DNA of 64,000 nt from Verrucomicrobiota bacterium (GCA_023269615.1 JAHFSY010000003.1:87665-151664), one strand, 5' to 3'; positions 12,952 to 57,410 are shown, numbered from the stretch's first letter. Notes: a model not told the origin generated them from the letters alone. A program made the numbers and translations.

Positions 12952-12952
12952 G

Positions 12953-14274: not shown

Positions 14275-14386
14275 AAAGGGGCGTTAACCCTACGCGAACC
14301 CGGTGGCGGAAGCAATCCTTACGAGGAAATATACGCTGGTCGCAATCATTTGAAAATTTGATGTTGTCTGGTAACGATCATGTTGT

Positions 14387-15031: not shown

Positions 15032-15053
15032 CCCGTCTCACATCAACCCATCA

Positions 15054-17032: not shown

Positions 17033-17034
17033 AC

Positions 17035-17823: not shown

Positions 17824-17834
17824 AATTCTCAAGC

Positions 17835-36671: not shown

Positions 36672-37907
36672 ATGACGACGACCGAACTTGAAATCGCGGA
36701 TGCGGCCTCGCGGGGCGTTCCTTCGGGCGAGGGGGTGGGCGAGCACCTGGTCTTGAACATGGGGCCTTCGCACCCGAGCACGCACGGGGTGCTGCGGATC
36801 ATTCTCGAGCTGGACGGCGAGGTGATCACGAAGGCGACGCCAGACATCGGCTACCTTCATCGCGGGGACGAGAAGATTGCGGAGAACATGACGTACACTC
36901 AGTTCATCCCGTACACGGACCGCCTGGATTATCTTGCCCCGCTGGCCAACAACGTGGCGTACGTGCTTGCGGTGGAAAAACTGCTGGGCGTGCAGGATCG
37001 CTTGACGCCGCGATGCCAGCATATCCGCGTGATGTGCTGCGAGCTGGCGCGCATCTCGGCGCATCTCCTGGGGATTGGCGCGCTGGCGATGGACACGGGA
37101 GCGCTGACCGTTTTTCTTTACACGTTCACGCAGCGCGAGACGATTTACAACCTGATCGAGGCGCTGACGGGCGCGCGCTTCACGACATCGTACACCCGGG
37201 TGGGCGGGTTGAGCCGTGATTTGCCGGAGGGCTGGCTCGACGCCGTCCGCAAATTCATTCCCGAATGTTGGAAGGCGATTGACGAGGTGGACCATCTGCT
37301 CACGCGCAACCGCATCTTTGTGGACCGCACGCGCAACGTGGGCGTGCTGAGCAAGGCGGATGCGATCGAGTACGGCGTCACGGGCCCCAACCTGCGCGGC
37401 TCCGGGGTTGCGTTCGACCTGCGCAAGGATCATCCATACCTGGCGTATCCAGAATATGATTTTGAGATCCCCGTGGGTTCCGTGGGCGATTCGTACGACC
37501 GCTACCTGGTGCGCATCGAGGAGATCCGCCAGAGCCTGCGCATCCTCAAGCAGGGGGCGGCGAACATGCCGGGCGGGCCGATCAACATTTCCGACAGCAA
37601 GACGGTGCTGCCGTCCAAGGAGAAGGTGCTCACGAAGATGGAGGAATTGATCCACCAGTTCATCCTGGTGACGGAGGGATTTGACGCACCACCGGGGGAG
37701 GTTTATTTCGAGGCGGAAAATCCGAAAGGCCAGCTTGGGTTTTACATTCACAGCAAGGGCGGGGGCGTGCCGCACCGGTTGAAAATTCGGGCGCCTTCGT
37801 TTGCCAATCTCAGCGTGCTTCCAAAACTTCTGCCCGGCAACATGCTGAGCGATGCCACCGCCATTTTGGGAAGCATTGATTTTGTGATGGGGGAATGTGA
37901 CCGGTGA
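36672..37907 (+). CDS. nuoD: NADH-quinone oxidoreductase subunit D (NuoD/Nqo4, 49 kDa)
   Basis: 'GPSHPSTHGVLRI' and 'RVGGLSRDLP', with C-terminal 'GSIDFVMGECDR'. It is an isolated gene. Confidence 0.9.
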   Translation: MTTTELEIADAASRGVPSGEGVGEHLVLNMGPSHPSTHGVLRIILELDGEVITKATPDIGYLHRGDEKIAENMTYTQFIPYTDRLDYLAPLANNVAYVLAVEKLLGVQDRLTPRCQHIRVMCCELARISAHLLGIGALAMDTGALTVFLYTFTQRETIYNLIEALTGARFTTSYTRVGGLSRDLPEGWLDAVRKFIPECWKAIDEVDHLLTRNRIFVDRTRNVGVLSKADAIEYGVTGPNLRGSGVAFDLRKDHPYLAYPEYDFEIPVGSVGDSYDRYLVRIEEIRQSLRILKQGAANMPGGPINISDSKTVLPSKEKVLTKMEELIHQFILVTEGFDAPPGEVYFEAENPKGQLGFYIHSKGGGVPHRLKIRAPSFANLSVLPKLLPGNMLSDATAILGSIDFVMGECDR

Positions 37908-38115: not shown

Positions 38116-39384
38116 ATGAAATTCCTTCTTGCCACCTGGGGTTCTTCCGGCGATTTGCATCCCTTTCTCTCGCTGGGAGCGGAGCTGGTGCGGCGGGGGC
38201 ATTCGGTGAAACTGGTCGGGCTGGATTCATGGGCGGATCGGGTCCGATCCACGGGGATGGAATTTGTGCCATCGGGCTCGGATGTGCAACTCGAGGAGAT
38301 GAAACGGCATCCCGAGGTTTTTTCGCCGCGAAACCTGGGGCTCACCTCCCTGCGCGCGTTGATGAGGGATTTTGTGGCGCCCTCCTTTGCTCCCATGGCG
38401 GGGGCGATGATCGATGCGGCGAAAGATTGCGATTGCCTGGTGTCACACAGTTTCGTGCTGGTGTCGCCGCTGGTGGCGGAGAAGACAGGGGTCCGCTTCG
38501 CGTCGGTGAGCCTGGCGCCGGGCGTGATCCCGAGCCGTTGTTCGATGCCATCCGGCGCGCTGCTCGATCCGTTTCGTGGCGTCGTGGGAGAATGGATCAA
38601 CCGGGGCATCTGGCAGATTGGAAAGTGGATGAGCCGTCCGAGCGTGGACCCGATGTTGAACGAGTTCCGTGCCTCGCAGGGATTGCCTCCGGTGAAGGAC
38701 GCGATTTTCACGAGCGTGTCGCGCGAACTGCACCTCCAACTCTACAGCAAGAACTTTGCCCCTCCCGAGCCCGACTGGCATCCGTCGCTGAAGCAGGCGG
38801 GTTTTTGTTTCTGGGACGAACCGGAATCATGGACGCCGCCCGGGGAGTTGCTGCGCTTTCTGGAGGCGGGCCCGAAACCCATCCTGTTCACCCTGGGGAC
38901 GAGCGCGATTTTCAGCCCGATGGGATTTTACGAGGCTGCGGCGCAAGCCGTGCGGGGGACGGGCCATCGGGCGATTCTCCTGACGGGACTGGCGGAGAAC
39001 GCGCCCCGCGATCTGCCACCGGAAGTGTTGGCCGTGAATTATGCGCCTTACGGATGGATCATGCCGCGATGCGCGGCGGTGTCACACCAATGCGGGATTG
39101 GCACATCGTCACAGGCGTTGCGTGCGGGGCTGCCTTCCATTTTATGCCCGTATGCCTTTGACCAGCCGAACAACGCAATGCGAATCCAGGGGTTGGGCGC
39201 AGGGGTGGTGCTTCCGAGAAACCGTCGTGGCCCGGAGGATTTGCGCGTGGCGATTGGGCGGATCATGGGAGAGCCGGGTTTTCGTCAGTCGGCCGGCAAA
39301 ATCGCGCGCGGCATCGCGGCAGAGAACGGCCCCTCCGTTGCGGCGGATGAGCTGGAGCGGTTTGTGAAGAAGAAAACCAGCTGA
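38116..39384 (+). CDS. GT1-family UDP-glycosyltransferase (MGT/UGT-like)
   Basis: 'LLATWGSSGDLHPFLSLGAEL' N-terminus and C-terminal 'HQCGIGTSSQAL' donor-binding block. Confidence 0.75.
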   Translation: MKFLLATWGSSGDLHPFLSLGAELVRRGHSVKLVGLDSWADRVRSTGMEFVPSGSDVQLEEMKRHPEVFSPRNLGLTSLRALMRDFVAPSFAPMAGAMIDAAKDCDCLVSHSFVLVSPLVAEKTGVRFASVSLAPGVIPSRCSMPSGALLDPFRGVVGEWINRGIWQIGKWMSRPSVDPMLNEFRASQGLPPVKDAIFTSVSRELHLQLYSKNFAPPEPDWHPSLKQAGFCFWDEPESWTPPGELLRFLEAGPKPILFTLGTSAIFSPMGFYEAAAQAVRGTGHRAILLTGLAENAPRDLPPEVLAVNYAPYGWIMPRCAAVSHQCGIGTSSQALRAGLPSILCPYAFDQPNNAMRIQGLGAGVVLPRNRRGPEDLRVAIGRIMGEPGFRQSAGKIARGIAAENGPSVAADELERFVKKKTS

Positions 39385-39445: not shown

Positions 39446-40237
39446 ATGGAATGGTATTACGCTGAAGGAGAAAACCGGGTTGGGCCTGTTTCTGATACCG
39501 ATATGAATGCGCTGGCTACGTCGGGAAAAGTCCGCCCGGAAACGCTGGTCTGGCATGACGGCATGGCGGGATGGCAGCCGTACTCGAGTGTTCGCCCGGG
39601 TGGGGCGCCCGCGACGGCGCCGGGACTTCGCCTCAAACCATACGCGGCCCCCGAGGCCACGTTACCGGGTTCCCAGACACCCCACGCTTGTTCGGTGTGC
39701 GGCAAGCCTTTTCCCGCGGACGAGATGATCCAGTATCAAAACTCGTGGGTGTGCGCGGCATGCAAGCCGATTTTTTTTCAGCGGGTGAAAGAGGGGGCCA
39801 GTGTGCCGGGCGTGATGGACTACGCCGGCTTTTGGATTCGCGTGGGGGCGCGTTTTGTGGACGGAATCATTCTGTACGTGGTGAACACGCTGGTGGGCGT
39901 GGTGGCGGGCGCCGGCATCGCGGCCGGTGGCAGTCGGAGCGCGCTCCACGTGGGCCTGCAAATCATTCTCATGTTCATTGGCATCGGCATCGGCGCCGCG
40001 TACACGATCTGGTTTACCGGCAAGTACGGGGCCACCCCCGGCAAGATGGCTTGCAAGATCAAAGTGGTCCGCGCAGACGGCAGCCCGCTGACCTACGGCC
40101 GCGCCTGCGGCCGGTATTTTGCGGACATGGTGAACGGATTAACGCTGGGAATCGGCTACATCATGGTGGCCTTTGACGAGGAGAAGCGCGGCTTGCACGA
40201 CCGCATTTGCGACACCCGAGTGATTCGAATCCCGTGA
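39446..40237 (+). CDS. RDD-family membrane protein with N-terminal DUF4339 (GYF-like) domain
   Basis: 'MEWYYAEGENRVGPVS...LVWHDGMAGWQPY', then a zinc-ribbon, then an RDD domain ('GFWIRVGARFVDGIILY', 'RGLHDRICDTRVIR'). Confidence 0.6.
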   Translation: MEWYYAEGENRVGPVSDTDMNALATSGKVRPETLVWHDGMAGWQPYSSVRPGGAPATAPGLRLKPYAAPEATLPGSQTPHACSVCGKPFPADEMIQYQNSWVCAACKPIFFQRVKEGASVPGVMDYAGFWIRVGARFVDGIILYVVNTLVGVVAGAGIAAGGSRSALHVGLQIILMFIGIGIGAAYTIWFTGKYGATPGKMACKIKVVRADGSPLTYGRACGRYFADMVNGLTLGIGYIMVAFDEEKRGLHDRICDTRVIRIP

Positions 40238-40824
40238 CCGCCACCCTCTTTTCACTCGACTGCCCGAAATGCGGCGACCCGATTTCCCCGACGGCCTGCA
40301 ACACCGGAGAGATGACGCCCTGCGGGCGATGCGGCACGCGCTACCAGGCGCTTGTATTTCCGGCGATCCTCCGGACATTCGAGATGCCCGCCGCAGGCGC
40401 GGGCGTGATTCAGGCGGAAGAGTCGAGCTGCTATTACCATTCCGCAAAAAAAGCGGTGACGGTCTGTGAAAGTTGCGGAGTCTTCCTGTGCGCCCTCTGC
40501 GATGTGTCGCTCAACAACCAGCATCTTTGTCCCAAGTGCATCGAGAAGGGAAAGGCAAAGGGACGGATGAAACACCTGGAGAACCAGAGAATATTGTATG
40601 ACGACATGGCATTGCGGCTCGCGCTCTACCCTGTCCTGCTGGTGATCACCGTGTATTTCACATTCATGACCGCCCCGGCCGCCCTCTTCATCGCCATCCG
40701 TTACTGGAACGCCCCGGGCAGCATCATTGGGCGAAGTAAATTCCGCATGGTCCTTGCCATCCTTTTTGCCACGCTCCAGATCCTTGGCTGGATCATGCTG
40801 TGTGTCTGGTTTGCAACCCATTGA
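40207..40824 (+). CDS. Zinc-ribbon membrane protein (hypothetical); start uncertain
   Basis: Two CxxC pairs ('CPKCGD', 'CGRCG'; 'CESCG', 'CPKC') followed by 2 TM helices. Confidence 0.4.
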   Translation: MRHPSDSNPVTATLFSLDCPKCGDPISPTACNTGEMTPCGRCGTRYQALVFPAILRTFEMPAAGAGVIQAEESSCYYHSAKKAVTVCESCGVFLCALCDVSLNNQHLCPKCIEKGKAKGRMKHLENQRILYDDMALRLALYPVLLVITVYFTFMTAPAALFIAIRYWNAPGSIIGRSKFRMVLAILFATLQILGWIMLCVWFATH

Positions 40825-40833
40825 AATTTCCAC

Positions 40834-41859
40834 ATGGCACGACAACCCAAGGAATATGTTCGCCTGCCTGGCCGTGGCCAGAAAGTGGTCGGTGTCCTGA
40901 GTGCCGGGAGAACCAGCCTGTGGCTTGGGAATGACCACCTGCTGCATGTCTCCGACCAATGGTTCACTGAAACCTACAAGCGGTTTTATTTCCGCGACAT
41001 CCAGGCCATCATGCTCCGCAAAACGCGCGCTGGAAAAATCATCAACCTGGTTTGCGGCCTGGTGGCGCTGCTGGTTTTTCTGTTTCCGCTTGCCGGGAAA
41101 CTGTATTGGGCATGGGATGCGGCCGGCATGATCGTGGGCGGTTGCTTCGGGGGATTTTTTCTTCTCATCGTCGTCGTCAACAGCCTCATGGGCCCCACCA
41201 GCTCGTGCAAACTCAAGACGGCGGTGCAGTCGGAGGAACTCCCCTCGCTGGCCCGCCTGTGGAGGGCGCGCAAGGTGTTGCGCATCCTGAGGGCCAGGAT
41301 CGATGCAGAGCAGGGCGTTCTCAGCCAGGAGGAGATCGCGTCCAATCGTGAAGCCATTCTCGCAGCTGGCGCGCTTGGGGCGGGGAATCCGCTCAAGGCC
41401 GCGGGCCCCCCGGAACTCATGCGGCACTGCGACGACCGTTTTCATGCGGCCATGCTTTACATCCTGTTGTTCGACGGCGTCCTGACCATCATCAATATTT
41501 TCATCCAGAACAAGCTGATCGATGCGATCTCCGCGTGCGTCCTCCTGGGCGGGATCACCTGCATGACGACCGCCCTCTTCAAGCAGCAGCGGAGCGACCT
41601 GCCTTCGGGATTGAAAAATCTGACCTGGGCCACCCTGGCATACACGGTTGCCTTCATGATTGTTGCAATCGGCTATGGGGTGATCCTGGCCCTGGAGAAT
41701 CCCGGGAAAATCGGGACCCAGCTTTCGCCATTCGATCATCCCGTGATCATGGCCATGGACCTGGTCTCGGCCATCTGCGATTTTTCGATTGGCGGATGCG
41801 GCGTGTACCTGCTCCAGAAATTCCGCCGTGAATCAGCGGCGCCCGACGCCCAGCCTTGA
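40834..41859 (+). CDS. Hypothetical polytopic membrane protein
   Basis: At least 6 predicted TM segments and no recognisable motif. Translationally coupled (ATGA overlap) to the next gene. Confidence 0.4.
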   Translation: MARQPKEYVRLPGRGQKVVGVLSAGRTSLWLGNDHLLHVSDQWFTETYKRFYFRDIQAIMLRKTRAGKIINLVCGLVALLVFLFPLAGKLYWAWDAAGMIVGGCFGGFFLLIVVVNSLMGPTSSCKLKTAVQSEELPSLARLWRARKVLRILRARIDAEQGVLSQEEIASNREAILAAGALGAGNPLKAAGPPELMRHCDDRFHAAMLYILLFDGVLTIINIFIQNKLIDAISACVLLGGITCMTTALFKQQRSDLPSGLKNLTWATLAYTVAFMIVAIGYGVILALENPGKIGTQLSPFDHPVIMAMDLVSAICDFSIGGCGVYLLQKFRRESAAPDAQP

Positions 41860-42182
41860 TGCAACATCTCGCACAACAACGCTGCCACCATCACCTCGCC
41901 CGCGAGGCGGTGGCACGCTGTCCCGAGTGCGCGCGGTTTTTCTGCCGCGAGTGCATCACGGAGCATGACGACCGGGTGATCTGCGCCACCTGCCTGAAAA
42001 AAATCACGGGCGCGTCCGGCGGGAGGAAACAGCGCCTGCGTGGCGTGATGACCCTGGCGTACGCGCTCTTCGGGTTCCTGTTCCTGTGGATGTTTTTTTA
42101 TTGCATCGGCCAGGGGCTGCTTTCGATGCCCTCCTCGTTCCATGAGGGAACGCTCTGGAAAAAAATTCAGGACGAGCCCTGA
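41856..42182 (+). CDS. Small zinc-ribbon membrane protein (hypothetical)
   Basis: 'CPECARFFCRECI...CATC' followed by 1 TM helix. Confidence 0.4.
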   Translation: MMQHLAQQRCHHHLAREAVARCPECARFFCRECITEHDDRVICATCLKKITGASGGRKQRLRGVMTLAYALFGFLFLWMFFYCIGQGLLSMPSSFHEGTLWKKIQDEP

Positions 42183-42204
42183 CCTCCCATCTGGAAGGGT
42201 CTTC

Positions 42205-43869
42205 ATGAAACAGGCGAGATCAAAAAACCAGAGGTGGCGCAACAAGGGGGCGCTGGAACTTGTGGAGGAATCAGTCCACCTGCTGCGAATGGCGCCGCTG
42301 GGATTTTTATTCAGCTATTACACGGGCAGCCTGCCCTTCGTGCTGGGGCTTTTGTTTTTCTGGGCGGACATGAGCCGCAGCGCATTCGCGGGGCGGCATT
42401 GCGCACGGGCCGCTTTTTTTCTGGCGCTGCTCTATCTCTGGATGAAGTGCTGGCAGGCGGTGTACGCCGGCCAGCTTCGGGCGCGCGTGGCAGGATCGGA
42501 ACCCGTGCGATGGAGCGTGTCGCGTGTTGCGCGCATGCTCGCGACCCAGTCCATCGTGCAACCCACGTGCATGGTTGTGCTCCCGATCTCCTTCCTGATC
42601 ACCCTGCCCTTTGGATGGGTGTATGCATTTTACCAGAACCTTTCGGTGACGGGCGATGGCGGGGAGGAGAATGTGCGGGAGTCGGTACGGAAGGCGTCGC
42701 GGCAGGCGTCGCTCTTTGCGGGGCAGAACCACCTTCTGATCGTGATCCTGTTCTCGTTCGGCGTGGTGATTTTCATGAACCTGACGCTTGCCTTGTTCAT
42801 GCTGCCGCATTTGCTCAAAATGTTTTCCGGCGTGGAGAATCTTTTCACGCGGAGCGGGATGAACATGCTGAACAGCACCTTCTTTGCGGTGACCGGCGGC
42901 CTGACGTACCTGTGTGTGAACCCGCTCATCAAGGCGGCCTACGTGTTGCGCTGTTTTTACGGCGAGTCGTTGCAGACGGGCGCCGATTTGCGGTCGGATC
43001 TGGGGCGTTTCGCGCGTGCGCCGCGCACCCTGGTGGCGGCGCTGGCGATTTTCGTGATGATGTCCGTGTGTGCAATGGCCGATGACCCGGCGGGCGGGAC
43101 TCCGCCTGCGAATGTGGAGGCCGGCGAACTGGACCGTTCGATCCGCGAGGTGATTGACCGACCCGAATACACGTGGCGTCTGCCGAGGGAAAAGCTGCCG
43201 GAGGATGACGTCGAACGGGGATTCGTCGGAAAATTCATGGATGACGCGCTCAACACCATCAAGGAACTCCTGCGGCCGATCAAGGTCTGGATAAAGGATA
43301 CGTTGGCATGGATCGAGGACTGGATGAAACGGCATTCGCCTGATCCGCAACCGCACGAACGTGGATCGTGGGACTGGCATTTCACGGCCCAGGCCTTGAT
43401 TTTCGCCCTGCTGGCGCTCGTGGCGAGCATCCTGGCCATCCTGCTGTTGAGAATGTGGCGGCGGCGGCGCATGTCGTCGCCCGAGGTGGTTGGACGAGCC
43501 GTGGCGGCAGCACCGGACCTGACGAAGGAGGATGTGCAGGCCGACGAGCTTCCGTCGGACGAATGGCTGGCCCTCGCCCGCGAGTTGCTGGCGAAGGGCG
43601 AGCTGCGCCTTGCGTTGCGCGCATTTTACCTCTCGACGCTTGCCGGGCTCGCGCAGCGGGAGATCATCACGCTCGCCCGGTTCAAGTCCAACCGCGACTA
43701 CGAGGGCGAGGTGAAGAGGCGCGCCCATTCGCAGCCGGAAGTGATCGAGGCCTTCGCGCAGAACATGACCGTCTTCGAAAGCGCATGGTACGGGATGCAT
43801 GAGGTGACCCGCGAGGCGGTCGAACATTTCATCACGAACCATGAAAGGATCCAGACCCATGCGTCGTGA
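42205..43869 (+). CDS. DUF4129-domain membrane protein
   Basis: N-terminal multi-TM region. The C-terminal segment 'LAKGELRLALRAFYLSTLAGLAQREIITLARFKSNRDY' matches the DUF4129 core. Confidence 0.55.
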   Translation: MKQARSKNQRWRNKGALELVEESVHLLRMAPLGFLFSYYTGSLPFVLGLLFFWADMSRSAFAGRHCARAAFFLALLYLWMKCWQAVYAGQLRARVAGSEPVRWSVSRVARMLATQSIVQPTCMVVLPISFLITLPFGWVYAFYQNLSVTGDGGEENVRESVRKASRQASLFAGQNHLLIVILFSFGVVIFMNLTLALFMLPHLLKMFSGVENLFTRSGMNMLNSTFFAVTGGLTYLCVNPLIKAAYVLRCFYGESLQTGADLRSDLGRFARAPRTLVAALAIFVMMSVCAMADDPAGGTPPANVEAGELDRSIREVIDRPEYTWRLPREKLPEDDVERGFVGKFMDDALNTIKELLRPIKVWIKDTLAWIEDWMKRHSPDPQPHERGSWDWHFTAQALIFALLALVASILAILLLRMWRRRRMSSPEVVGRAVAAAPDLTKEDVQADELPSDEWLALARELLAKGELRLALRAFYLSTLAGLAQREIITLARFKSNRDYEGEVKRRAHSQPEVIEAFAQNMTVFESAWYGMHEVTREAVEHFITNHERIQTHAS

Positions 43870-45238
43870 TTCCAGATGGATGTTCGTACTCCTGCCACTC
43901 ATCGTGGCCCTGTTTGCGTTTGGCCTGGCGCAGCTGTTGCGGCTGCGGTTTGAGACGGGCGATGCCTATCCGCCCTACTCCTCGCTGCGTTCCGATCCGC
44001 TCGGGACGCGGGCATTTTACCAGAGCCTTGAGCGCCTCGACCGTGTTGCGGTCGAGCGCAATCACCTGCCGCTCGAAAAACGGCACGACGACGCGCCCAC
44101 CACGCTTTTTCTTTTCGGCTTGGATGTAACCAGCATGAATTACATGATGGAGCAGGAAGTGCTCGATCTGGAGACGCGCGTCCGTGCTGGTGAACGCCTT
44201 GTCCTCACCTTCCTGCCTGTCAGTCAAAAACCAAACCTGATCCGCTGGTTGGACAAACAGGAGAAGGAAGAGTTTGAAAAAAACGAGAAGGAGCGGATGG
44301 AAGGGGAAAAGAATGCGGCTGGAACAAATGAAACTGCAAAAGTGGAATCGCCGGTGAAGGAGGATCCTCTGGCGCAGCAGCCCCCGCCGGCTGGGGAGAA
44401 ATCGGAAGAACCTGCACCGGCGGAACAGAAACGGCCCGCGACGAAACATGCCTCCAAGGACACCCTCGATCCATCGGGTGAATCTCTTTCATTGAAGCAG
44501 CGATGGGGGGTTGGCTTCGATTACTCGGATTTGAAAGCCACTCCTGATGACAAGCCCGTGCCGGAGACTGCATTGAAGAAGGATGCGCCGGATGAATTTG
44601 ACAAGGTGTCCTGGCACTCGGCGCTTTATTTCAAGGACCTCACGTCCGACTGGCGCGTGGTGTACGTTCGCGGAGAGCTTCCGGTCATGATCGAGCGCAA
44701 GCTGGGTGCGGGCACCATGGTGCTGGTTTCCGACTCCTATTTTCTGAGCAACGAGGCGATGCGCAACGAGCGCCACCCCCCGCTGCTGGCCTGGCTGGCC
44801 GGGCCCCATCCAAAAATCATTTTCGACGAGACACATCTTGGCGTGCACGAAGACCAGGGCGTGGCGCTTCTCATGAGGAAGTACCGCCTGCACGGCCTTT
44901 TCGTGGGACTCTTCCTGCTGGCAGGGCTTTTCATCTGGAAGAACTCGTTCAGTTTCGTGCCGCCTCACGAGGACGAGCGCCAGGAGGAGGCGCAGGGTTT
45001 TGCGGCGGGACGCGACGACGAGTCGGGCTTCGTCAATCTCCTGCGCCGCAACATTCCGGCCTCGGCCATTTTGAAAACCTGTTTCGACGAGTGGAACAAG
45101 TCGTTCAGCCACCTTCGCAAACTCCCCGCATCCGACGTGGGGCGCATCCAGTCAGAAATCACCCAGCCTCCCTCGAAGGAGCACAACCCAGCAACCAGCT
45201 ACAACGCCATCACCCAAATCCTGGCGGAAAGGAAATAA
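43859..45238 (+). CDS. DUF4350-like membrane-anchored protein
   Basis: N-terminal TM, a central acidic/Lys-rich insert, the DUF4350-like block 'IIFDETHLGVHEDQG' and a C-terminal TM. Confidence 0.5.
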   Translation: MRRDSRWMFVLLPLIVALFAFGLAQLLRLRFETGDAYPPYSSLRSDPLGTRAFYQSLERLDRVAVERNHLPLEKRHDDAPTTLFLFGLDVTSMNYMMEQEVLDLETRVRAGERLVLTFLPVSQKPNLIRWLDKQEKEEFEKNEKERMEGEKNAAGTNETAKVESPVKEDPLAQQPPPAGEKSEEPAPAEQKRPATKHASKDTLDPSGESLSLKQRWGVGFDYSDLKATPDDKPVPETALKKDAPDEFDKVSWHSALYFKDLTSDWRVVYVRGELPVMIERKLGAGTMVLVSDSYFLSNEAMRNERHPPLLAWLAGPHPKIIFDETHLGVHEDQGVALLMRKYRLHGLFVGLFLLAGLFIWKNSFSFVPPHEDERQEEAQGFAAGRDDESGFVNLLRRNIPASAILKTCFDEWNKSFSHLRKLPASDVGRIQSEITQPPSKEHNPATSYNAITQILAERK

Positions 45239-45239
45239 C

Positions 45240-46208
45240 ATGGAACCCGTGAATACCAATGAATTGAAGGAAGTGCTCGCCAAGGCGCGGCAGGAGGTGG
45301 CCAAGATCATCATCGGCCACCAGGACATCGTGGACAAGGCGCTGATCGTCATCATCACCGGCAGCCACGCGCTCATCGAGGGTGTGCCCGGGGTGGGCAA
45401 GACGCTTCTCGTCCGCACGCTTGGGCATGTGCTGGGTTGTGATACGGGCCGCATCCAGTTCACGCCCGACCTGATGCCCTCGGACATCATCGGCACCAAC
45501 GTCTTCAACCTGCAGAAAAATGAATTCACGCTGGTGAAGGGGCCGGTCTTCACCACGTTCCTGCTGGCGGATGAAATCAACCGCGCGCCTGCGAAGACAC
45601 AGTCGGCCTTGCTGCAGGCGATGCAGGAGAGGCTGGTGAGCATTGACCGCGAGACGCACCGTCTTTCGGAAAACTTCACGGTCTTTGCAACGCAGAACCC
45701 GATCGAGTACGAGGGCACCTATCCGTTGCCCGAGGCGCAAAAGGACCGCTTCATGCTGAAAATCTCGATGGGCTGTCCCGGGCGCGAAGAGGAGCTTACG
45801 CTCGCGCAGCGGATGCTGGGAGGAAAGTCGCCCGAGGCCGCGCTTCGGGACGGACAGGTGCAGACGGTGATTCACAACGATGCGCTCTCACGTCTGCGAA
45901 AATCCCTGGATGGAATTCTGATGAAGGAGGAGCTTGTGGGTTACCTGGTGGACCTGGTGAGGGGGACACGCACGCACACGAGCATCCTCGTGGGCGCGGG
46001 CCCTCGCGCCACGCAATCCCTCCTCCTCGCCAGCCGCGCGTACGCGGCGTTGTCAGGGCGCGATTTTGTGACGCCCGACGACATCAAGGCGATGGTGACC
46101 CCCGTGCTCGAACACCGCGTGATCCTGCGTCCCGAGTTTGAGATCGAGGGCGTGACGGTGGGCGAAGTAATCCAGCAGATCGTGCAGGGAGTGGCGGTGC
46201 CACGCTGA
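45240..46208 (+). CDS. MoxR-family AAA+ ATPase
   Basis: Walker A 'GVPGVGKT', Walker B 'LLADEINRA' and 'TQNPIEYEGTYPLPEAQKDRF'. Confidence 0.9.
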   Translation: MEPVNTNELKEVLAKARQEVAKIIIGHQDIVDKALIVIITGSHALIEGVPGVGKTLLVRTLGHVLGCDTGRIQFTPDLMPSDIIGTNVFNLQKNEFTLVKGPVFTTFLLADEINRAPAKTQSALLQAMQERLVSIDRETHRLSENFTVFATQNPIEYEGTYPLPEAQKDRFMLKISMGCPGREEELTLAQRMLGGKSPEAALRDGQVQTVIHNDALSRLRKSLDGILMKEELVGYLVDLVRGTRTHTSILVGAGPRATQSLLLASRAYAALSGRDFVTPDDIKAMVTPVLEHRVILRPEFEIEGVTVGEVIQQIVQGVAVPR

Positions 46209-46210
46209 AG

Positions 46211-47554
46211 ATGGAATTCAGAAAATCCGCCCCCATGCTCCTTCCCCAAAATCGTCTTCTTCTCTGGGTCGGCTTCGCGTTGCCGTTTGCGGCGATCGGG
46301 ATGATGACGTCGTCAGCCGCGGTGGTTTCGATTTCGGTGATAGCGCTGCTGGTCGTGGTGGCGGGCGTGGACGCGGCGATGGCGCGCGGGCAGCTTCGGG
46401 GGATCCGCGTGGAGCTTCCCGACGTCGTGCGTCTTTCCAGAAACCGCGAAGGGACGATTGCCCTGAGGATCCACAGGGAGGGGACGAACGCCCGCATGGT
46501 GCGGGTGGGGCTGCCATTCCCGAGGGAGATCAGCACGCCGAACGAGGATTTCCGCGTGGCCCTTCCCGAGGGCGCGGCTTGTTCGCAGATCGCGTGGCCC
46601 TGCACTCCCTCGAAGCGCGGCAATTACCGGCTGAGCCGGTGCCAGCTGGAGGTTTCGTCCCCCATGGGATTCTGGAGTGCACGCAGTGCAATGGAAGTGG
46701 CGTCGGAGATCCGGGTTTATCCCAACCTGCTCGACGATCGAAAGCGGCTTGCGGCGATCTTTCTCAACCGCGGAAGCTTCGGCGTTCACGCGCAACGGAT
46801 GATCGGGCAGGGGCGCGATTTTGAAAAGCTGCGCGATTACATTCCCGGCGACAGCTACGACCAGATCCACTGGAAGGCGACTGCGAAGCGCGGCTGCCCG
46901 GTGACGAAAGTCTTCCAGGTTGAGCGGACGCAGGAGGTCTATGTCATTCTCGATTACTCGCGTTTGAGCGGGCGGAAGCTGGACAACGACACCGTGCTTG
47001 AGCGATTCATCACTGCGGCGCTGGTGCTGGGCCTGGTGGCGGAGCAGCAGGGCGATCTCTTCGGCCTGCTGACGTTCAGCGACCGGGTGAGTGGCTTCGT
47101 GCGCGCGCGCAACGGGCGGGCGCATTACGATTCCTGCCGCGACACGCTCTACACGCTTCACCCGAAGCGGGTGACACCGGACTTTGCTGAAGTCTGCGCC
47201 TTCATCCGCCAGCGCCTGCGCCGCCGCGCCCTGCTGGTGTTTCTCACCGACCTCGATGACCCCGTGGTCGCCGAGAGTCTCGTCAAGAATGTGGATCTCA
47301 TCGCGCGCCAGCATCTGATCCTCATCAGCGCCGTGCGTTCGCGCAATGCGGAACCCATTTTCAAATCCGAAAGCGCGGCTTCGCTGGACGACGTATATCG
47401 TCACCTGGGAGGGCATCTGTTGTGGCAGCGCGCCCGCGAGGTGGGGAAAGTGCTGCAGCGCCACGGCGTGCGCATGCTGCACCTGGACGATGAGAAAATG
47501 AGCGCGCAACTCGTGTCGCAATATCTCACCATCAAGCAAAGGCAGTTGCTGTGA
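46211..47554 (+). CDS. DUF58-domain protein (VWA-like partner of MoxR)
   Basis: 'GRDFEKLRDYIPGDSYDQIHWKATAKRG' is the hallmark DUF58 block. Has an N-terminal TM pair. Confidence 0.8.
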   Translation: MEFRKSAPMLLPQNRLLLWVGFALPFAAIGMMTSSAAVVSISVIALLVVVAGVDAAMARGQLRGIRVELPDVVRLSRNREGTIALRIHREGTNARMVRVGLPFPREISTPNEDFRVALPEGAACSQIAWPCTPSKRGNYRLSRCQLEVSSPMGFWSARSAMEVASEIRVYPNLLDDRKRLAAIFLNRGSFGVHAQRMIGQGRDFEKLRDYIPGDSYDQIHWKATAKRGCPVTKVFQVERTQEVYVILDYSRLSGRKLDNDTVLERFITAALVLGLVAEQQGDLFGLLTFSDRVSGFVRARNGRAHYDSCRDTLYTLHPKRVTPDFAEVCAFIRQRLRRRALLVFLTDLDDPVVAESLVKNVDLIARQHLILISAVRSRNAEPIFKSESAASLDDVYRHLGGHLLWQRAREVGKVLQRHGVRMLHLDDEKMSAQLVSQYLTIKQRQLL

Positions 47555-48570
47555 TCATCGATGTGCAAAAATTCGTGGAATCGGAGCGTACCCAGTGGGA
47601 ATCATTGGAGGCATTCCTGAAGCGCCTTGAGGCGGACCCCGATTACCGTATGGATCTCGCGGCGTTGCAGGAATTTCATCATCTCTACCGCAGGGCATCC
47701 GCGGACCTTGCGAAAATCTCGACTTTTGCCTCCGAGCAGGAAATCCGGCGTTACCTGGAGACGCTCGTTGCGCGCGCGTACGGCGAGATCCATGAAACGC
47801 GCGAGAAGCCGCACCGCCTCAAGCCGGTGGACTGGTTTTGCCGGACTTTCCCGCGGACATTCCGTCGTCACGTGCGTGCGTTCTGGCTTTCGCTCGCCAT
47901 CACGCTGGCGGGTGTGGCGTTTGGCGGCCTGGCGCTTGCGCTCGACCCGGAGTCCAAGGGTGTGCTTCTGCCCTTCTCGCATTTGCAGGGTGATCCTGCC
48001 GAGCGTGTGAAGCAGGAGGAGGCGAGCCTTGGTCAACGGCTGGAAGGGGGGAAGACCAACTTTTCATCGTTCCTGATGACCCACAACACGCAGGTTTCGA
48101 TTTTCACGCTCTCGCTTGGCATGACGTGGGGAGTGGGCACGATTGTGATGCTTTTTTATAACGGCGTGATCCTTGGCGCGGTGGGGATGGATTACATCCT
48201 GGCGGGGCAGACGAAATTTCTCCTTGGGTGGCTGATGCCGCATGGCGTGATTGAAATTCCGGCGATCCTGCTGGCGGGACAGGGCGGGCTGCTGCTGGGA
48301 GGCGCGTTGATTGGATGGGGAAGCCGAGCCTCGCTCCGCGCGCGCCTGCGAGCGGTGGGGCCGGACCTCGCCACCCTGATCGGCGGAGTCGCCGTGATGC
48401 TTGTGTGGGCCGGTTTCATCGAGGCGTTTCTCTCGCAGTATCACGAGCCGATCATTCCGTACGCGGCGAAGATCGCCTTTGGGGCGGTTGAACTCGCGCT
48501 CCTGGTCGCGTTTCTCAGCATGGCGGGACGCAAGGCAGGCAAGGACGAAACATTGAATGCGAAACTCTGA
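47551..48570 (+). CDS. Stage II sporulation protein M (SpoIIM/DUF95)-like membrane protein
   Basis: N-terminal soluble helical region followed by 5 or more TM helices ('LMTHNTQVSIFTLSLGMTWGVGTIVMLFYNGVILG'). Confidence 0.65.
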   Translation: MIIDVQKFVESERTQWESLEAFLKRLEADPDYRMDLAALQEFHHLYRRASADLAKISTFASEQEIRRYLETLVARAYGEIHETREKPHRLKPVDWFCRTFPRTFRRHVRAFWLSLAITLAGVAFGGLALALDPESKGVLLPFSHLQGDPAERVKQEEASLGQRLEGGKTNFSSFLMTHNTQVSIFTLSLGMTWGVGTIVMLFYNGVILGAVGMDYILAGQTKFLLGWLMPHGVIEIPAILLAGQGGLLLGGALIGWGSRASLRARLRAVGPDLATLIGGVAVMLVWAGFIEAFLSQYHEPIIPYAAKIAFGAVELALLVAFLSMAGRKAGKDETLNAKL

Positions 48571-49343
48571 TGCCTGGAACAAAAACCAACACGCTGGTCA
48601 TCCAAACCTCGGAGGGAATCGCATTTCCGCTGCTGCTGGCCAGCCCCGTGACACGGTTTCTGGCGTGGGCGATTGACGCCCTGTGCATCCTGGCGTTTTG
48701 CAATATTTGCAGCGCGGCGCTTGGATTTTTGAAATTCATCAGCTGGGACATCGCCTCGGCGGTCACGATCCTGGCGTACTTCGCCATTTCCATCGGTTAC
48801 GCCATGACGCTCGAGTGGTACTGGCGCGGGCAGACGGTTGGGAAGCGGGTGCTCCGCCTGCGCGTGGTGGACGCCCAGGGGTTGCGGCTGCAAATGAGCC
48901 AGGTCATCATCCGCAACCTGCTGCGGTTTGTGGATTGGCTGCCCGCGTTTTACATGGTGGGCGGGCTCGCGTGCCTGGTCAGTCATCGCGCGCAACGCCT
49001 TGGCGATCTCGCGGCCAACACGATTGTGACGCGCCACCCGCGCCTGACGGAGCCCGATCTCGAGCAGATCCTCGCGGGCAAATACAATTCCTTCCGCGAG
49101 CATCCGCATCTCGCCGCGCGGTTGCGCCAGCGAGTGTCGCCCGAGGAGGCGGGCATCGCGTTGCAGGCGTTGATGCGCCGCGACGAACTCGATCCCGTGG
49201 AGCGCGTCACCCTGTTTGAGCAGATCGCAAATCATTTTCGCGAGGTCCTCCGATTTCCCCAGGAAGCCACGGATGGGATCACGGATGAGCAGTATGTGAG
49301 AAACGTGGTGGACGTCCTGTTCCGCACGAAAATGAATCCCTGA
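48570..49343 (+). CDS. RDD-family membrane protein
   Basis: 'RFLAWAIDALCILA', 'YWRGQTVGKRVLRLRVVD' and 'QRLGDLAANTIV' RDD motifs. Confidence 0.7.
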   Translation: MPGTKTNTLVIQTSEGIAFPLLLASPVTRFLAWAIDALCILAFCNICSAALGFLKFISWDIASAVTILAYFAISIGYAMTLEWYWRGQTVGKRVLRLRVVDAQGLRLQMSQVIIRNLLRFVDWLPAFYMVGGLACLVSHRAQRLGDLAANTIVTRHPRLTEPDLEQILAGKYNSFREHPHLAARLRQRVSPEEAGIALQALMRRDELDPVERVTLFEQIANHFREVLRFPQEATDGITDEQYVRNVVDVLFRTKMNP

Positions 49344-49380
49344 TTTCCGTCGGGCAGCGTTTGTGTTACCCTTCCGTCGC

Positions 49381-51843
49381 ATGAAGAGGAAACCTGAATT
49401 GATCGCGCCTGCGGACAACATGGAATGCGCGCGCGCCGCCGTGGCCAACGGCGCGGATGCGGTTTACTTTGGCCTTCCGCGTTTCAACGCGCGCATGCGG
49501 GCGGATAATTTCACGGCGGAGGAATTGCCGGAGCTCGTGCGCTTTCTTCATGCGCACCATGTCCGGGCATTCGTCACCTTCAACACGCTCATTTTCACGG
49601 GGGAACTCGACGACGCGGAAAAGCAGTTGATCCTGCTCGACCGCGCCGGTGTGGACGTCGTCATCGTGCAGGACCTCGGCCTCGCGTGGCTGGCGAAGGA
49701 ACTCGGCGTGCGCATGGCGGTGCATGGTTCCACGCAGATGACCATCACCTCACCCGAGGGCGTCCGCTTCGCGCACAAGCTCGGGCTCCAGCGCGTGGTG
49801 CTCGCGCGGGAAACCTCGCTGCGCGAGCTCGCGAAATTTGAAAACCCGGAAGTTTCGCTTGAAACGTTTGTGCACGGCGCACTTTGCGTTGCGTATTCGG
49901 GTCAGTGCCTGACCAGCGAAGCGCTCGGCCAGCGCAGCGCCAACCGGGGCGAATGCGCGCAGGCGTGCCGTCTTCCATACGGGCTGATCGTGGACGGTGC
50001 GTTGAAGGAACTCGGCGACCGCCGCTATCTGCTTTCACCGCAGGACCTCGCGGCGGTGCATGAAATTCCGGAACTCATCCGTCTCGGCGTCACGGGCTTC
50101 AAGATCGAGGGGCGTCTCAAGACCCCGGAATACGTGGCGGCGACCACGCAGGTTTATCGCAAGGCCATTGACGCGGCGATGAAAGGGGTGGGCGATGTTT
50201 CGAAGGAGGACGAATACCAGCTAGAGATGGCCTTCTCGCGCGGGCTGTTTTCGGGGTGGATGCATGGGGTGAACCACCAGAAACTGGTGCATGCGCGCTT
50301 TGGAAAAAAGCGCGGTCCGTTTGCAGGGCTGATCACGCGCGTCGGAACGGAGAGCGTGGAGGTGAAGCTTGAAACTCCGTTGCGACCCGGCGATGGAATT
50401 GTCTTCGACACGGGCGGCGACACCGACCAGGAGCAGGGCGGGCGCGTGTACGAAATCCGTGGAAGCCATCTGTACTTCAAGCATGGACATCTGGATTTTT
50501 CGAGGATCAAGCCCGGCGACCGCGTGTGGAAGACAAGCGATCCGCAGCTCGAACGCGCGTTGAAAAAAACATTTGAAGGCGACATTCCCGAGCCCCGGGC
50601 GAACGTGGATTTTCAAGTGTCAGGCGCCGCTGGCAAAACGCTCGTGATCGAGGTGGTTGCGGGGGGCGAAACATTTCGGGCTGTTTCCACGATGTTGTTG
50701 CAGGCGGCGCTCAAACGGCCACTGACGCCAGAAATGCTTGGCGAACAATTGGGACGGCTGGGAGAGACACATTTCACACTCGGAAAACTTATCAGCAAAC
50801 TTGAAGGTGAAGTGATCCTGCCCGTGAGCGAGCTCAACCGGATGCGGCGCGAAATCATGACGCAGATGGAAGCGGCGCATGCCGTTTCAATTCAGAAAAA
50901 GACGGACAGTGGTGGTGAGTTGAGGCCGGTTCTGTCCAGCTTGCTGGCCGGGATTTCCCGTCAGCGTGACGTGGCAGATTCAGGCCCCGTGGAGCTGATC
51001 GCACTCTGCCGCAGCATGGAGCAGATCGAGGCGGCGCTTGCGAGCGGGTGTTCGACCATCTATGCCGACTTCGAGGACATCCGCCGCTATCATGAAGCCG
51101 TGGCTAGTGTCCGCAAGAAAGCGGGCGCGGCCATCCTTCTTGCCACGCCGCGCATCCAGAAGGCGGGCGAGCAGGGATTTTTCAAGCTCATCGAGGCCGC
51201 CGGGGCGGACGGCGTCTTGATCCGCAACCTGGGCGCGCTCGATTTTTTCAAGGACAGCGCGCTGCGAAAGATCGGTGACTTTTCGCTCAACGTCGCCAAT
51301 CCACTTTCTGCCGCGCTCCTCATGCGCGAGGGGCTGGAGCGGCTCACGATTTCGTACGACTTGAATGCGGACCAGGTGCTCGACTTGCTGAAGGCGGCTC
51401 CGCCTGCGTGGTTTGAGCTGACGGTGCACCAGCACATGCCGATGTTTCACATGGAGCACTGCGTCTTTGCGGCGTTTCTGTCCAACGGCACCGACCATAC
51501 CAATTGCGGTCGTCCATGCGATACTCACAAGTTGAAGCTGCGCGATCGGGTGGGAGTGGAGCATCCCGTGAAGGCCGACGTGGGCTGCCGCAACACCGTG
51601 TTTCACGCGAGGGCGCAAAGCGGCGCCGATTATCTGCGGACGTTCATGGATGCTGGCGCACACGCATTCCGCGTGGAATTCCTCGAGGAGAATGCAACCC
51701 AGGCGCGTGCCACCCTCCAGGCCTACCGTGAACTTCTCAACGGAACAATGAGCGACACCCTGGAACTGATCCGACAATTGAACGTGGTGAAACAACTCGG
51801 AGTCACGAGCGGCACACTGACGGTGCTCGCACGGGAATCATGA
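49381..51843 (+). CDS. Peptidase U32-family protein (long form with DUF3656 C-terminal region)
   Basis: 'ELIAPADNMECARAAVANGADAVYFG' and 'FVHGALCVAYSGQCLTS' U32 blocks. About 820 aa. Confidence 0.85.
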   Translation: MKRKPELIAPADNMECARAAVANGADAVYFGLPRFNARMRADNFTAEELPELVRFLHAHHVRAFVTFNTLIFTGELDDAEKQLILLDRAGVDVVIVQDLGLAWLAKELGVRMAVHGSTQMTITSPEGVRFAHKLGLQRVVLARETSLRELAKFENPEVSLETFVHGALCVAYSGQCLTSEALGQRSANRGECAQACRLPYGLIVDGALKELGDRRYLLSPQDLAAVHEIPELIRLGVTGFKIEGRLKTPEYVAATTQVYRKAIDAAMKGVGDVSKEDEYQLEMAFSRGLFSGWMHGVNHQKLVHARFGKKRGPFAGLITRVGTESVEVKLETPLRPGDGIVFDTGGDTDQEQGGRVYEIRGSHLYFKHGHLDFSRIKPGDRVWKTSDPQLERALKKTFEGDIPEPRANVDFQVSGAAGKTLVIEVVAGGETFRAVSTMLLQAALKRPLTPEMLGEQLGRLGETHFTLGKLISKLEGEVILPVSELNRMRREIMTQMEAAHAVSIQKKTDSGGELRPVLSSLLAGISRQRDVADSGPVELIALCRSMEQIEAALASGCSTIYADFEDIRRYHEAVASVRKKAGAAILLATPRIQKAGEQGFFKLIEAAGADGVLIRNLGALDFFKDSALRKIGDFSLNVANPLSAALLMREGLERLTISYDLNADQVLDLLKAAPPAWFELTVHQHMPMFHMEHCVFAAFLSNGTDHTNCGRPCDTHKLKLRDRVGVEHPVKADVGCRNTVFHARAQSGADYLRTFMDAGAHAFRVEFLEENATQARATLQAYRELLNGTMSDTLELIRQLNVVKQLGVTSGTLTVLARES

Positions 51844-55747: not shown

Positions 55748-55859
55748 CCTGCTTCCGTAAACATCCGTTGACATCCATGCGGGAGGGATGTACCCAAATG
55801 GGTATGCACCCGCGGAGTCACGTCCGGACGACGCCTCCCGTGCAGAACCAGCCATTCAC

Positions 55860-57410
55860 ATGACAAAAGCCGACACCGGTTCCCAGGGGAAGAGAGCGTT
55901 GCGCAAGACCATGCGCGTCCAGGCCACGAAACCCCCCGAAGGCATGGACGAGAAGATGTTCAAGGCGGCGGCGTTGGGACAGATTGTAACGCTGGAAATG
56001 CTGTTGCCCAAGGCGACGAATGTGGACTGCCGTGACGCCAAGGGGCGGACGGCCTTGATCTGGGCGGCAGCCAACGGCCACCCGTCCGTGGTGAATCTCC
56101 TCCTGGATCGCGGGGCCAACATTGAAGCGAAGGACGAACTTGGGAGAACGCCGCTGATGTGGGCATCCGAGAATGGCCATATTGCCACGGTGCGCGTATT
56201 GCTCCAGCGAGGTGCGAACATTCATTCAAAGGACAAGGAGATGGCCACGGCACTCACTCTTGCCAGTGCCAAAGACCATAAGCAAATTGTGAACCAGCTC
56301 ACGCAGGCTGGCGCGGTGCTCGGAAGCTGGAATAACTGGAACGCCAGCCCGCGAGCGCGTCCTTTACGGCAGATGCCGGGCGGCGTATTCGATTCGGGCG
56401 CGCAGCCGGCCGTGGCTGTGGGTTCCATCAATCCGAAAATCAAGCGCAACGAGCCAGGCCCTGCGCGTCGGGTTGAGGCGGAGAAAGCCGCACCGCCTGC
56501 CAGATCGCTGAAAACGATCCCCGTCAACGTAACCCGCGCCCGCGTGGAACACGGCCAGCTTGCGTCCCTTGGCGACGCGATTTCCATTTCTCTCGAGGAG
56601 AAATTGGATGAGCTGGCGCGAAATTCCGATTACAGCCGGTCCTATATCAGGGCGTTCGCCATCCCGCTGATGACCAAGGGCAAGGTGAGGATCGACAAAG
56701 GCGACCACGTTGAACGCATCGGGATGGATCCAAAAAACCTCCTCGACCACGAAGAAGCAGAGGATCTTCTTGAAAGCTATTTGATCACGTTGCCACAGGA
56801 AGCGAAGGAAGCAGGGGGTGGAGCTCGCGGCGAAGCGCAGGCGTCTTACGCTCCGGGCGCATTGAGCGTCGAGACTTCCGCCGCGGGCGATGAAATGCAG
56901 GGCGGAGCGGCCTCGACCATGCCGCCCGGCAACGCCGCCATGATGCGGGCGGCAATGGAGGGGCGCACGACCACGCTGAAAATTCTCATCGAGGAAGGCG
57001 CCGACATCAACATCCGTCTGCTGGACGGATGGACGCCCCTGATGTGCTCCGTATGGAACGGCCACGGCGAGAGTGTAAAGATCCTCCTTGAACTGGGCGC
57101 TGATCTTGAAGCCCGCGGTGCCAATGGCTGGACGGCCCTCATGATCGCCGCCTGGAATGGCCACCCTGACATCGTCCAGCAGCTCGTGGAGGAAGGTGCC
57201 AACGTGCATGCATGCGACGAAACCGGCAAGACCGTGCTGATGTGGGCTGTGCAAAACGGCAATCCCGCCAGTGTGAAAATTCTTCTCGCGAAAAAGGTGG
57301 ACGTGAATGCCATGAACAACCGCGGCAAGACCGCTCTTTATTACGCTGCGCGCGAGGAACACCCTGCCATTGTCAAGCTGCTCGAAAAAGCCGGCGCAAA
57401 AGAGTCGTAG
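55860..57410 (+). CDS. Ankyrin-repeat protein (N-terminal 3-4 ANK, low-complexity middle, C-terminal 5 ANK)
   Basis: 'GRTALIWAAANGHPSVVNLLLDRGANIEAKD', 'GWTPLMCSVWNGHGESVKILLELGADLEA' and further repeats. Confidence 0.8.
   Translation: MTKADTGSQGKRALRKTMRVQATKPPEGMDEKMFKAAALGQIVTLEMLLPKATNVDCRDAKGRTALIWAAANGHPSVVNLLLDRGANIEAKDELGRTPLMWASENGHIATVRVLLQRGANIHSKDKEMATALTLASAKDHKQIVNQLTQAGAVLGSWNNWNASPRARPLRQMPGGVFDSGAQPAVAVGSINPKIKRNEPGPARRVEAEKAAPPARSLKTIPVNVTRARVEHGQLASLGDAISISLEEKLDELARNSDYSRSYIRAFAIPLMTKGKVRIDKGDHVERIGMDPKNLLDHEEAEDLLESYLITLPQEAKEAGGGARGEAQASYAPGALSVETSAAGDEMQGGAASTMPPGNAAMMRAAMEGRTTTLKILIEEGADINIRLLDGWTPLMCSVWNGHGESVKILLELGADLEARGANGWTALMIAAWNGHPDIVQQLVEEGANVHACDETGKTVLMWAVQNGNPASVKILLAKKVDVNAMNNRGKTALYYAAREEHPAIVKLLEKAGAKES

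Follow-up and report, generated by a model that had tools for sequence, protein, structure and literature searches.

Ten co-directional open reading frames (ORFs) lie at positions 39446-49343 on the plus strand of the 64,000-nucleotide stretch of Verrucomicrobiota DNA analyzed here (the window), and each either overlaps its neighbor or sits no more than 22 nucleotides (nt) from it. The genes, called g1 to g10 below, surround a MoxR/DUF58 pair, and both the ORFs and their junctions confirm an earlier note on this DNA, which had described a tightly coupled ten-gene unit. Transmembrane (TM) helices are predicted in nine of the ten products, MoxR (g7) being the sole soluble one. We propose, at a little less than an even chance, that the ten products are subunits of one inner-membrane complex that is assembled or switched by the MoxR-DUF58 pair. 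The genes are as follows.

g1, 39446..40237, plus strand: 263 amino acids (aa); GYF_2 domain, Pro-rich linker, CxxC...CxxC zinc ribbon and RDD membrane domain
g2, 40234..40824, plus strand: about 196 aa; N-terminal zinc ribbon, B-box-like two-zinc module and about three TM helices
g3, 40834..41859, plus strand: 341 aa; putative PH-like domain interrupted by a TM hairpin, then a four-helix TM bundle
g4, 41859..42182, plus strand: 107 aa; B-box-like two-zinc module, single TM helix and conserved tail
g5, 42205..43869, plus strand: 554 aa; N-terminal polytopic domain, predicted periplasmic segment, TM helix and C-terminal DUF4129
g6, 43859..45238, plus strand: about 459 aa; N-terminal TM anchor, DUF4350 domain, second TM helix and cytoplasmic tail
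g7, 45240..46208, plus strand: 322 aa; MoxR-type AAA+ ATPase, cytoplasmic
g8, 46211..47554, plus strand: 447 aa; DUF58, with N-terminal TM hairpin and vWA-type domain
g9, 47551..48570, plus strand: 339 aa; N-terminal domain of about 110 aa and SpoIIM/DUF95 polytopic domain
g10, 48570..49343, plus strand: 257 aa; RDD membrane domain and conserved C-terminal soluble domain of about 100 aa without family assignment

Gene starts and junctions

Four gene starts (those of g2, g4, g5, and g6) were revised by ortholog alignment. Ortholog N termini place the g2 start at GTG 40234, in a GTGA overlap with the g1 stop codon, and g4 starts at ATG 41859 within the sequence TGATG. The start of g5 is ATG 42205, where a 554-aa database protein of 100% identity (P0001) also begins; a start at ATG 42142 was rejected, as exact-sequence look-up with it gave no match. 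The start of g6 is probably ATG 43859, and the product would be 465 aa long if ATG 43841 were used instead. After revision, the nine junctions from g1 to g10 measure -4, +9, -1, +22, -11, +1, +2, -4, and -1 nt, with a GTGA overlap at g8/g9 and a TGATG overlap at g9/g10. The junctions quoted in the earlier note (41856, 45238/45240, 46208/46211, 47551/47554, and 48570) are all real. Consensus scans found no promoter and no convincing terminator at any of the nine junctions: promoter-like sites numbered 4 against 3.8 expected, and the terminator-like sites (34 against 18.3 expected) were weak, lay inside coding sequence, and never fell at a gene junction. Scanning the window for Rfam families and tRNA genes gave no matches, and a search with hidden Markov models (HMMs) of all ten proteins found no second copy of the module within it.

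Conservation and boundaries of the unit

The database holds more than 1,600 relatives of g5 that match over their full length at 43-57% identity. Three contigs with orthologs carry the ten genes in identical order, with differing neighbors on both sides; one comes from Pedosphaera parvula (ABOX02000012, with the module at 7638-17185 of locus L002), one is a metagenome contig from JGI, and one is from ENA. When one genome per species was scanned, a g5 relative was encoded in 379 of 185,579 species genomes. The best 80 of the 379 belong by label to Verrucomicrobiota (most), Desulfobacterota, Nitrospirota, Acidobacteriota, and Poribacteria, a few labels of metagenome-assembled genomes (MAGs) being doubtful; Desulfobacterota carriers include a complete Smithellaceae chromosome (OY821638.1), and Nitrospirota carriers include a 2.46-Mb contig. 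HMMs for g1 to g10 were then searched against six-frame ORFs of all loci, and all ten genes were present, colinear, and on one strand in 38 of 38 loci with enough flank on both sides. The window itself matches all ten HMMs. Where the flank allows each gene to be scored, g1 was present in 49/50 loci, g2 in 58/59, g3 in 64/65, g4 in 75/76, g6 in 68/68, g7 in 60/62, g8 in 56/60, g9 in 51/54, and g10 in 47/49. Six loci (L025, L029, L033, L041, L063, and L087) appear truncated or split despite available flank and contain no runs of N, and L063 has g5 without g1 to g4 in 9.8 kb upstream. Rearrangement or assembly chimeras could account for such incomplete loci.

Median distances from a stop codon to the projected next start ranged from -23 to +4 nt over all nine junctions (52 to 79 loci each). 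No flanking gene was conserved, and since no flanking family recurred in more than 9 of about 82 loci, we conclude that the unit runs from g1 to g10. Two adjoining genes were rejected as members: a glycosyltransferase gene (38116-39384), there being no conserved neighbors across loci, and a gene for a U32 peptidase with DUF3656 (826 aa, 49363-51843, plus strand), which begins 19 nt after g10 and may be co-transcribed with it here and is not conserved beside the module elsewhere. A neighbor-joining tree of five concatenated proteins grouped the loci roughly by phylum and placed the window inside the Verrucomicrobiota clade. The earlier note had taken the zinc-ribbon proteins to be lineage-specific additions, a view that did not hold, as g1 to g4 are near-universal among loci where the flank allows them to be scored, across at least four phyla as labeled. 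Thus, g1 to g4 are specific to the ten-gene variant and not to a lineage.

Two or more independent units might simply have stayed adjacent, for example g1 to g4 as one and a six-gene core as the other. Alphaproteobacteria indeed have the core without g1 to g4 and with DUF805 instead, and the widest gap in the window (22 nt) is the g4/g5 junction. However, g1 to g4 were never found apart from the core in the 38 complete loci, the median distance from g4 to g5 was -4 nt over 79 loci, and the N-terminal domain of g5 co-varies with the presence of g1 to g4. We give little credence to separate units.

Some loci showed peculiarities of their own. Two contigs of the Verrucomicrobiota MAG JBDSYB01 (loci L009 and L010) carry one module copy each, which are either paralogous copies in one genome or the product of a mixed bin. 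Directly downstream of the module on the opposite strand, locus L018 (17079-19520, minus strand) and seven other related loci have an ORF of about 814 aa with a GYF-like beginning. Finally, a metagenome contig (L004) has a stand-alone HEPN (PF05168) gene at 17392-17898 on the plus strand, about 230 nt downstream of the module; the gene was not seen at other loci, and its position is probably coincidental.

Core proteins

Domains were called with Pfam-A at the gathering score, and NCBIfam contributed nothing specific. None of the DUF assignments made earlier failed under HMM search, every Pfam match for them lying above the gathering score. MoxR (g7) matches AAA_3 (5.8e-61) and AAA_lid_2 (2.1e-23), and its Walker A (GVPGVGKT), Walker B (LLADEINR), and sensor-1 (ATQNP) motifs are intact and at least 90% conserved among 70 orthologs. 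The gene for g8 follows directly after a 2-nt gap, and its product matches DUF58 (1.4e-21), a vWA-type family (PMC5898192, PMC3495828), and has TM sequence at residues 16-53. The g6 protein matches DUF4350 (5.6e-13), which is described as GldG-like (PMC5898192), with TM segments at residues 15-33 and approximately 348-373 and a low-complexity insert in the DUF4350 domain. The g9 protein matches SpoIIM (PF01944, 1.9e-34), and precomputed Pfam annotation of its orthologs gives the N-terminal domain as DUF8413 (PF28475). Neither g8 nor g9 had a meaningful match among PDB sequences. The g10 protein matches RDD (6.6e-19), and its C-terminal motifs are conserved among 53 orthologs.

The g5 protein is polytopic from about residue 10 to 255, has a predicted periplasmic segment at about 290-390 that contains a YTWRxPREK motif, and continues with a TM helix and the DUF4129 domain (about 445-554; 6.8e-7). 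DUF4129 was the sole Pfam match at an E value of 0.1 or below, and no transglutaminase core was found. By structure comparison, and at the level of the fold only, the N-terminal domain appears to resemble CysZ/EI24/CTL-like transporters and the DUF4129 domain a HEPN helical bundle without the RNase motif. The two likenesses were allotted to their respective domains by inference from aligned lengths, as aligned ranges were not reported. The HEPN Rx4-6H motif is absent from DUF4129, the conserved residues of which (KSNRDYE...RRxH...WYG) lack such spacing.

A HEPN-like domain beside a MoxR-vWA pair could point to a conflict system, in which the HEPN-like DUF4129 domain or a membrane subunit would be the effector of anti-phage defense or abortive infection. 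MoxR-vWA pairs regulate the effectors of several conflict systems (PMC7159879), the module is rare across species, and the fold predicted for the C-terminal domain of g5 would suit such a role. DUF4129 lacks the catalytic-type motif just described, however, and PADLOC returned only two marginal matches for the ten proteins (E values of about 1e-3 and 15-17 bits), namely, g2 to HEC-08 and the P-loop region of g7 to mad8. We rejected membership in a known anti-phage defense system for want of a real PADLOC match. Moreover, the gene content of the module is invariant, with no variable effector modules, its tree largely follows phyla, and it has housekeeping genes as neighbors in the window, none of the ORFs scanned there coming from mobile elements. 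A conflict system seems to us highly improbable.

Upstream proteins

The g1 protein matches GYF_2 (DUF4339, 1.7e-16) and RDD (4.2e-28) and has CxxC motifs at residues 82 and 103; the Cys ligands and the RDD motifs are conserved among 60 orthologs. The earlier note had described the three proteins that follow as small CxxC zinc-ribbon membrane proteins. The description suits g2, with five CxxC motifs, and g4, with three, but not g3, which has none. No Pfam family matched g2 above threshold, and g4 matched ANCHR-like_BBOX (4e-4) and zf-B_box (0.019) below threshold. Orthologs of g2 and g4 share one zinc module in which C9, H12, C21, C24, C29, C32, C42, and C45 are invariant, and the g2 and g4 HMMs cross-match at about 1e-9. 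B-box models matched at E values below 0.01 in many of 41 orthologs (zf-B_box in 34 and ANCHR-like_BBOX in 26), always below the gathering score, and we therefore call the module B-box-like rather than a member of the B-box family. The tail of g4, which is predicted to be periplasmic, carries a PxxFHEGTxW motif conserved at 90% or more.

For g3, neither the Pfam library nor the precomputed Pfam annotation of its homologs held a matching model. The AlphaFold 2 (AF2) model of g3, with a predicted local distance difference test score (pLDDT) of 87, has five strands (residues 15-63), a TM hairpin (66-119), two strands and a helix (122-160), and four TM helices (bundle at 202-335). A seven-strand beta sandwich with a C-terminal helix cap, the hallmark of PH-like folds, is present in the model, and Foldseek matches were weak and mostly to PH domains. 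Thus, g3 is modeled with a membrane hairpin inserted into a PH-like domain. The family has 2,788 representatives at an E value of 1e-3 or below among 1.84 billion clustered proteins, and comes in a long form of about 350 aa and a short form of about 200 aa.

The C-terminal tails of g3 homologs are Pro-rich: short forms end in NAPPRLNS or NLPPRIVS, long forms have PPxLP runs, and the tail of the window copy has only AAPDAQP. Such Pro-rich tails could be ligands of the g1 GYF domain. Among short-form homologs (P0164, P0177, and P0183), some have an additional N-terminal zinc ribbon (MKKCxYCGKE...), and zinc-ribbon modules therefore appear to be shuffled among accessory subunits.

Predicted topology and proposed mechanism

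Most of the soluble domains are predicted to face the cytoplasm. On that side we place the GYF domain and zinc ribbon of g1, the zinc modules of g2 and g4, and the PH-like domain of g3, as well as DUF4129, which comes after a TM helix and the stretch RMWRRRR. The body of DUF58, downstream of an N-in hairpin, is assigned to the same side, as are the g9 N-terminal domain and the g6 and g10 tails. The predicted periplasmic parts are the DUF4350 domain, residues 290-390 or so of g5, and the g4 tail.

How such a complex might work can be proposed from what is known of the MoxR family. In the MoxR-vWA model, a vWA co-chaperone holds a peptide of its partner, and the hexameric ATPase remodels that partner to drive assembly or release (PMC7159879, PMC3495828). 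Here, DUF58 would be anchored by its N-terminal TM hairpin, and its cytoplasmic vWA-type domain would couple a MoxR hexamer to the partners, the conformation or assembly state of which would be altered by ATP hydrolysis. Because the membrane-tethered pair is always encoded with eight other membrane proteins and without a protease, cargo, or outer-membrane component, the co-encoded subunits may themselves be the clients. The partners would be the polytopic, transporter- or permease-like proteins of the unit, that is, the CysZ/CTL-like g5, the SpoIIM-like g9, and the RDD proteins g1 and g10. The DUF4350 domain of g6 would be the main extracytoplasmic module, at the periplasmic face, and the cytoplasmic DUF4129 bundle, which is also terminal in TgpA-type proteins of other MoxR-DUF58 operons, would probably serve for docking or be the client domain. 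As for g1 to g4, their GYF, zinc-ribbon/B-box, and PH-like domains may be adaptors on the cytoplasmic side that keep the complex together or pass a signal to it. Overall, the unit would use ATP to assemble or switch a device for membrane transport or remodeling.

The case for a single complex is made by colinearity in every complete locus, the presence of each gene in at least 93% of loci where the flank allows it to be scored, unrelated flanks, tight junctions, significant Pfam matches, nine membrane products, and intact MoxR motifs. It is further backed by the order of the core in Rhizobium, Paracoccus, and Mycobacterium, by the mycobacterial co-downregulation and pull-down described below, and by the MoxR-vWA precedent. 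Several observations weigh against it. Contacts among the subunits are inferred from co-occurrence. The topology is a prediction from hydropathy, the positive-inside rule, and AF2 helices. The MIDAS-like motif of DUF58, named for the metal ion-dependent adhesion site, is degenerate in g8 (DxSRLS...T...D). A g5 profile found nothing among PDB sequences, such that the CysZ/CTL and HEPN likenesses stand at the fold level only, and hhalign of DUF4129 against HEPN (PF05168) gave a probability of 0.5%, a weak test in that the alignment held only six homologs. Finally, several junctions are 100-1000 nt wide in some Desulfobacterales loci, and a single transcript is not guaranteed everywhere.

Envelope-protein assembly or quality control, suggested in the earlier note, is another possible role, in which a chaperone machine would fold, insert, or clear external envelope proteins, with the membrane subunits as its platform. 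MoxR-DUF58-type operons are reportedly tied to envelope or stress phenotypes, as for the Riemerella MoxR. Moreover, SpoIIM of Bacillus subtilis is a scaffold for peptidoglycan hydrolases (PMC5898192), and Zhang and Aravind proposed that MoxR-vWA-TGL forms a membrane-proximal degradation system (PMC3495828). The ten proteins, however, have no protease or transglutaminase domain (Pfam, E values up to 0.1), the adjoining U32 peptidase is not a conserved companion, and the flanks offer no conserved candidate client gene. The predominance of predicted cytoplasmic domains is no less compatible with a regulated membrane complex that is self-contained, and we regard envelope quality control as unlikely.

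A single switched or assembled complex remains our preferred explanation. In a more specific form, and one we consider unlikely, the unit would encode a previously undescribed AAA+-driven inner-membrane machine: a MoxR-DUF58 motor would gate or assemble a hetero-oligomeric transporter-like complex (a CysZ/CTL-like protein, two RDD proteins, and a SpoIIM-like protein) under the control of B-box, GYF, and membrane-split PH domains in the cytoplasm. If true, such a machine would explain what the widespread DUF4129/DUF4350/SpoIIM/RDD core does, also in Mycobacterium tuberculosis (Rv3689-Rv3695). The core is among the more widespread conserved operons without an assigned function, occurring in the M. 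tuberculosis MoxR2 region, on rhizobial replicons, and in many environmental phyla, and the ten-gene form is its most complete version, invariant in content and present in the cultured Pedosphaera parvula Ellin514. The operon itself will not surprise a specialist, but its invariance across phyla and the fold-level annotations make a long-standing question testable. With the fold assignments (CysZ/CTL-like, HEPN-like, split PH, and B-box), what was a list of DUFs becomes an architecture open to testing: transporter-like subunits would span the membrane, MoxR and DUF58 would sit at its cytoplasmic side, and a single large domain would lie in the periplasm. With that architecture, the targets of MoxR-DUF58 pairs become approachable.

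Other genes in the window

Elsewhere in the window, a lone NuoD-like gene (36672-37907, plus strand; Complex1_49kDa, 1.4e-114) has an HpcH/HpaI aldolase-like gene on one side and a glycosyltransferase gene on the other, with no other nuo genes adjacent. Ankyrin repeats account for nearly the whole of a 549-aa protein (55761-57407, plus strand; Ank_2, 3e-71) that is encoded next to a QueG-like epoxyqueuosine reductase gene. At 59104-63999 on the minus strand, a UvrA-like ORF of more than 1,632 aa runs off the end of the window; it has multiple ABC ATPase regions and the UvrA DNA-binding and interaction domains.

Comparison with other systems

Operons of the Bat/aerotolerance type have the order MoxR-DUF58-VWA-TPR, as in Bacteroides and Borrelia (BB0170-BB0176). 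The present unit resembles them in that an AAA_3 MoxR gene directly precedes DUF58 and the partners are membrane associated. Unlike in those operons, where BatA/BatB-type VWA and TPR proteins follow DUF58, no VWA or TPR Pfam match was found in any of the ten proteins, and the partners are wholly different. The MoxR-DUF58(vWA)-TgpA/YebA transglutaminase operon of three genes likewise combines MoxR and DUF58 with a polytopic membrane protein (PMC3495828). In contrast to that operon, g5 lacks a transglutaminase core, its N-terminal domain appears CysZ/CTL-like at the fold level, and seven further genes are present. The TgpA/YebA protein also ends in DUF4129. The g9 protein shares its Pfam family both with B. 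subtilis SpoIIM, of the DMP engulfment complex, and with the DUF95/SpoIIM proteins of circular-bacteriocin clusters; unlike in those systems, SpoIID/SpoIIP and bacteriocin genes are missing, g9 has the N-terminal DUF8413 domain, and it is coupled to MoxR/DUF58.

Archaeal gene neighborhoods with arCOG01314 (DUF4350), MoxR, and vWA were predicted to form a secretion or membrane-remodeling system by Makarova, Galperin, and Koonin in 2015 (PMC5898192), who also noted that bacterial SpoIIM homologs adjoin vWA and COG0714 genes. The window has the same combination of genes, for a membrane-anchored DUF4350 protein, a COG0714 MoxR ATPase, and a protein of the vWA/DUF58 type. The window module might accordingly be imagined as a secretion or surface-assembly system, given that GldG-like DUF4350, MoxR, and vWA define the archaeal one and that g6 shares its anchor-domain-anchor layout. 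But the Ig-like and S-layer-type proteins of the archaeal system (COG4743/PF07760) had no Pfam counterpart among the ten proteins; in these mostly diderm phyla, the module has no conserved companion gene for a secretin, an outer-membrane protein, or a substrate; and the operon has no cargo that bears a signal peptide. The description of the archaeal system includes none of the DUF4129, RDD, B-box, GYF, and PH components. We find secretion or surface assembly very unlikely.

The six- or seven-gene module of M. tuberculosis (Rv3689-Rv3695, the MoxR2 region), Rhizobium, and Paracoccus has the six core families in identical order. A tblastn search of plasmids with g9 gave 49 records (Rhizobium, Paracoccus, and Bernardetia), and two annotated loci (L088 and L089, from Rhizobium and Paracoccus) encode, in this order, DUF805, a hypothetical protein of about 250 aa, another of about 430 aa, MoxR, DUF58, SpoIIM, and RDD. 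The Rhizobium hypotheticals gave weak matches to DUF4129 and DUF4350, and their Paracoccus counterparts gave none. In M. chelonae, the counterparts of Rv3689, Rv3691 (DUF4350), Rv3692 (MoxR), Rv3693 (DUF58), Rv3694c (SpoIIM), and Rv3695 (RDD) appear as co-downregulated in a transcriptome table (PMC8191103), and Rv3694c and Rv3695 were recovered jointly in a pull-down of the divisome-associated membrane protein Rv0954 (PMC8093794). Thus, the alphaproteobacterial and mycobacterial loci bear out the expectation that a DUF4129-DUF4350-MoxR-DUF58-SpoIIM-RDD core recurs across phyla. Its reputed lack of an assigned function was also borne out in the literature searched (for DUF4129, DUF4350 with MoxR, and Rv3692-95), which held tables and passing mentions only, mentioned DUF4129 in only two papers, nowhere combined it with MoxR, and reported no functional test of the cluster. 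The SigF-regulon MoxR/DUF58 genes of M. smegmatis (MSMEG_6606-6612) appear to be another MoxR operon and were not used.

Alignments of the short module's SpoIIM-like proteins with g9 cover about 87% of g9 at 27-31% identity, and its DUF4129 domain aligns with that of g5 at 23-25% identity, with invariant residues in common. In the alphaproteobacterial module, a DUF805 gene is present and the DUF4129 protein measures about 250 aa; the window unit instead adds g1 to g4 (GYF-zinc ribbon-RDD, zinc ribbon/B-box TM, split-PH TM, and B-box TM proteins) and, in g5, joins DUF4129 to an apparently CysZ/CTL-like polytopic domain of about 290 aa. We conclude that what sets this ten-gene variant of a shared core apart is g1 to g4 together with the long N-terminal domain of g5.

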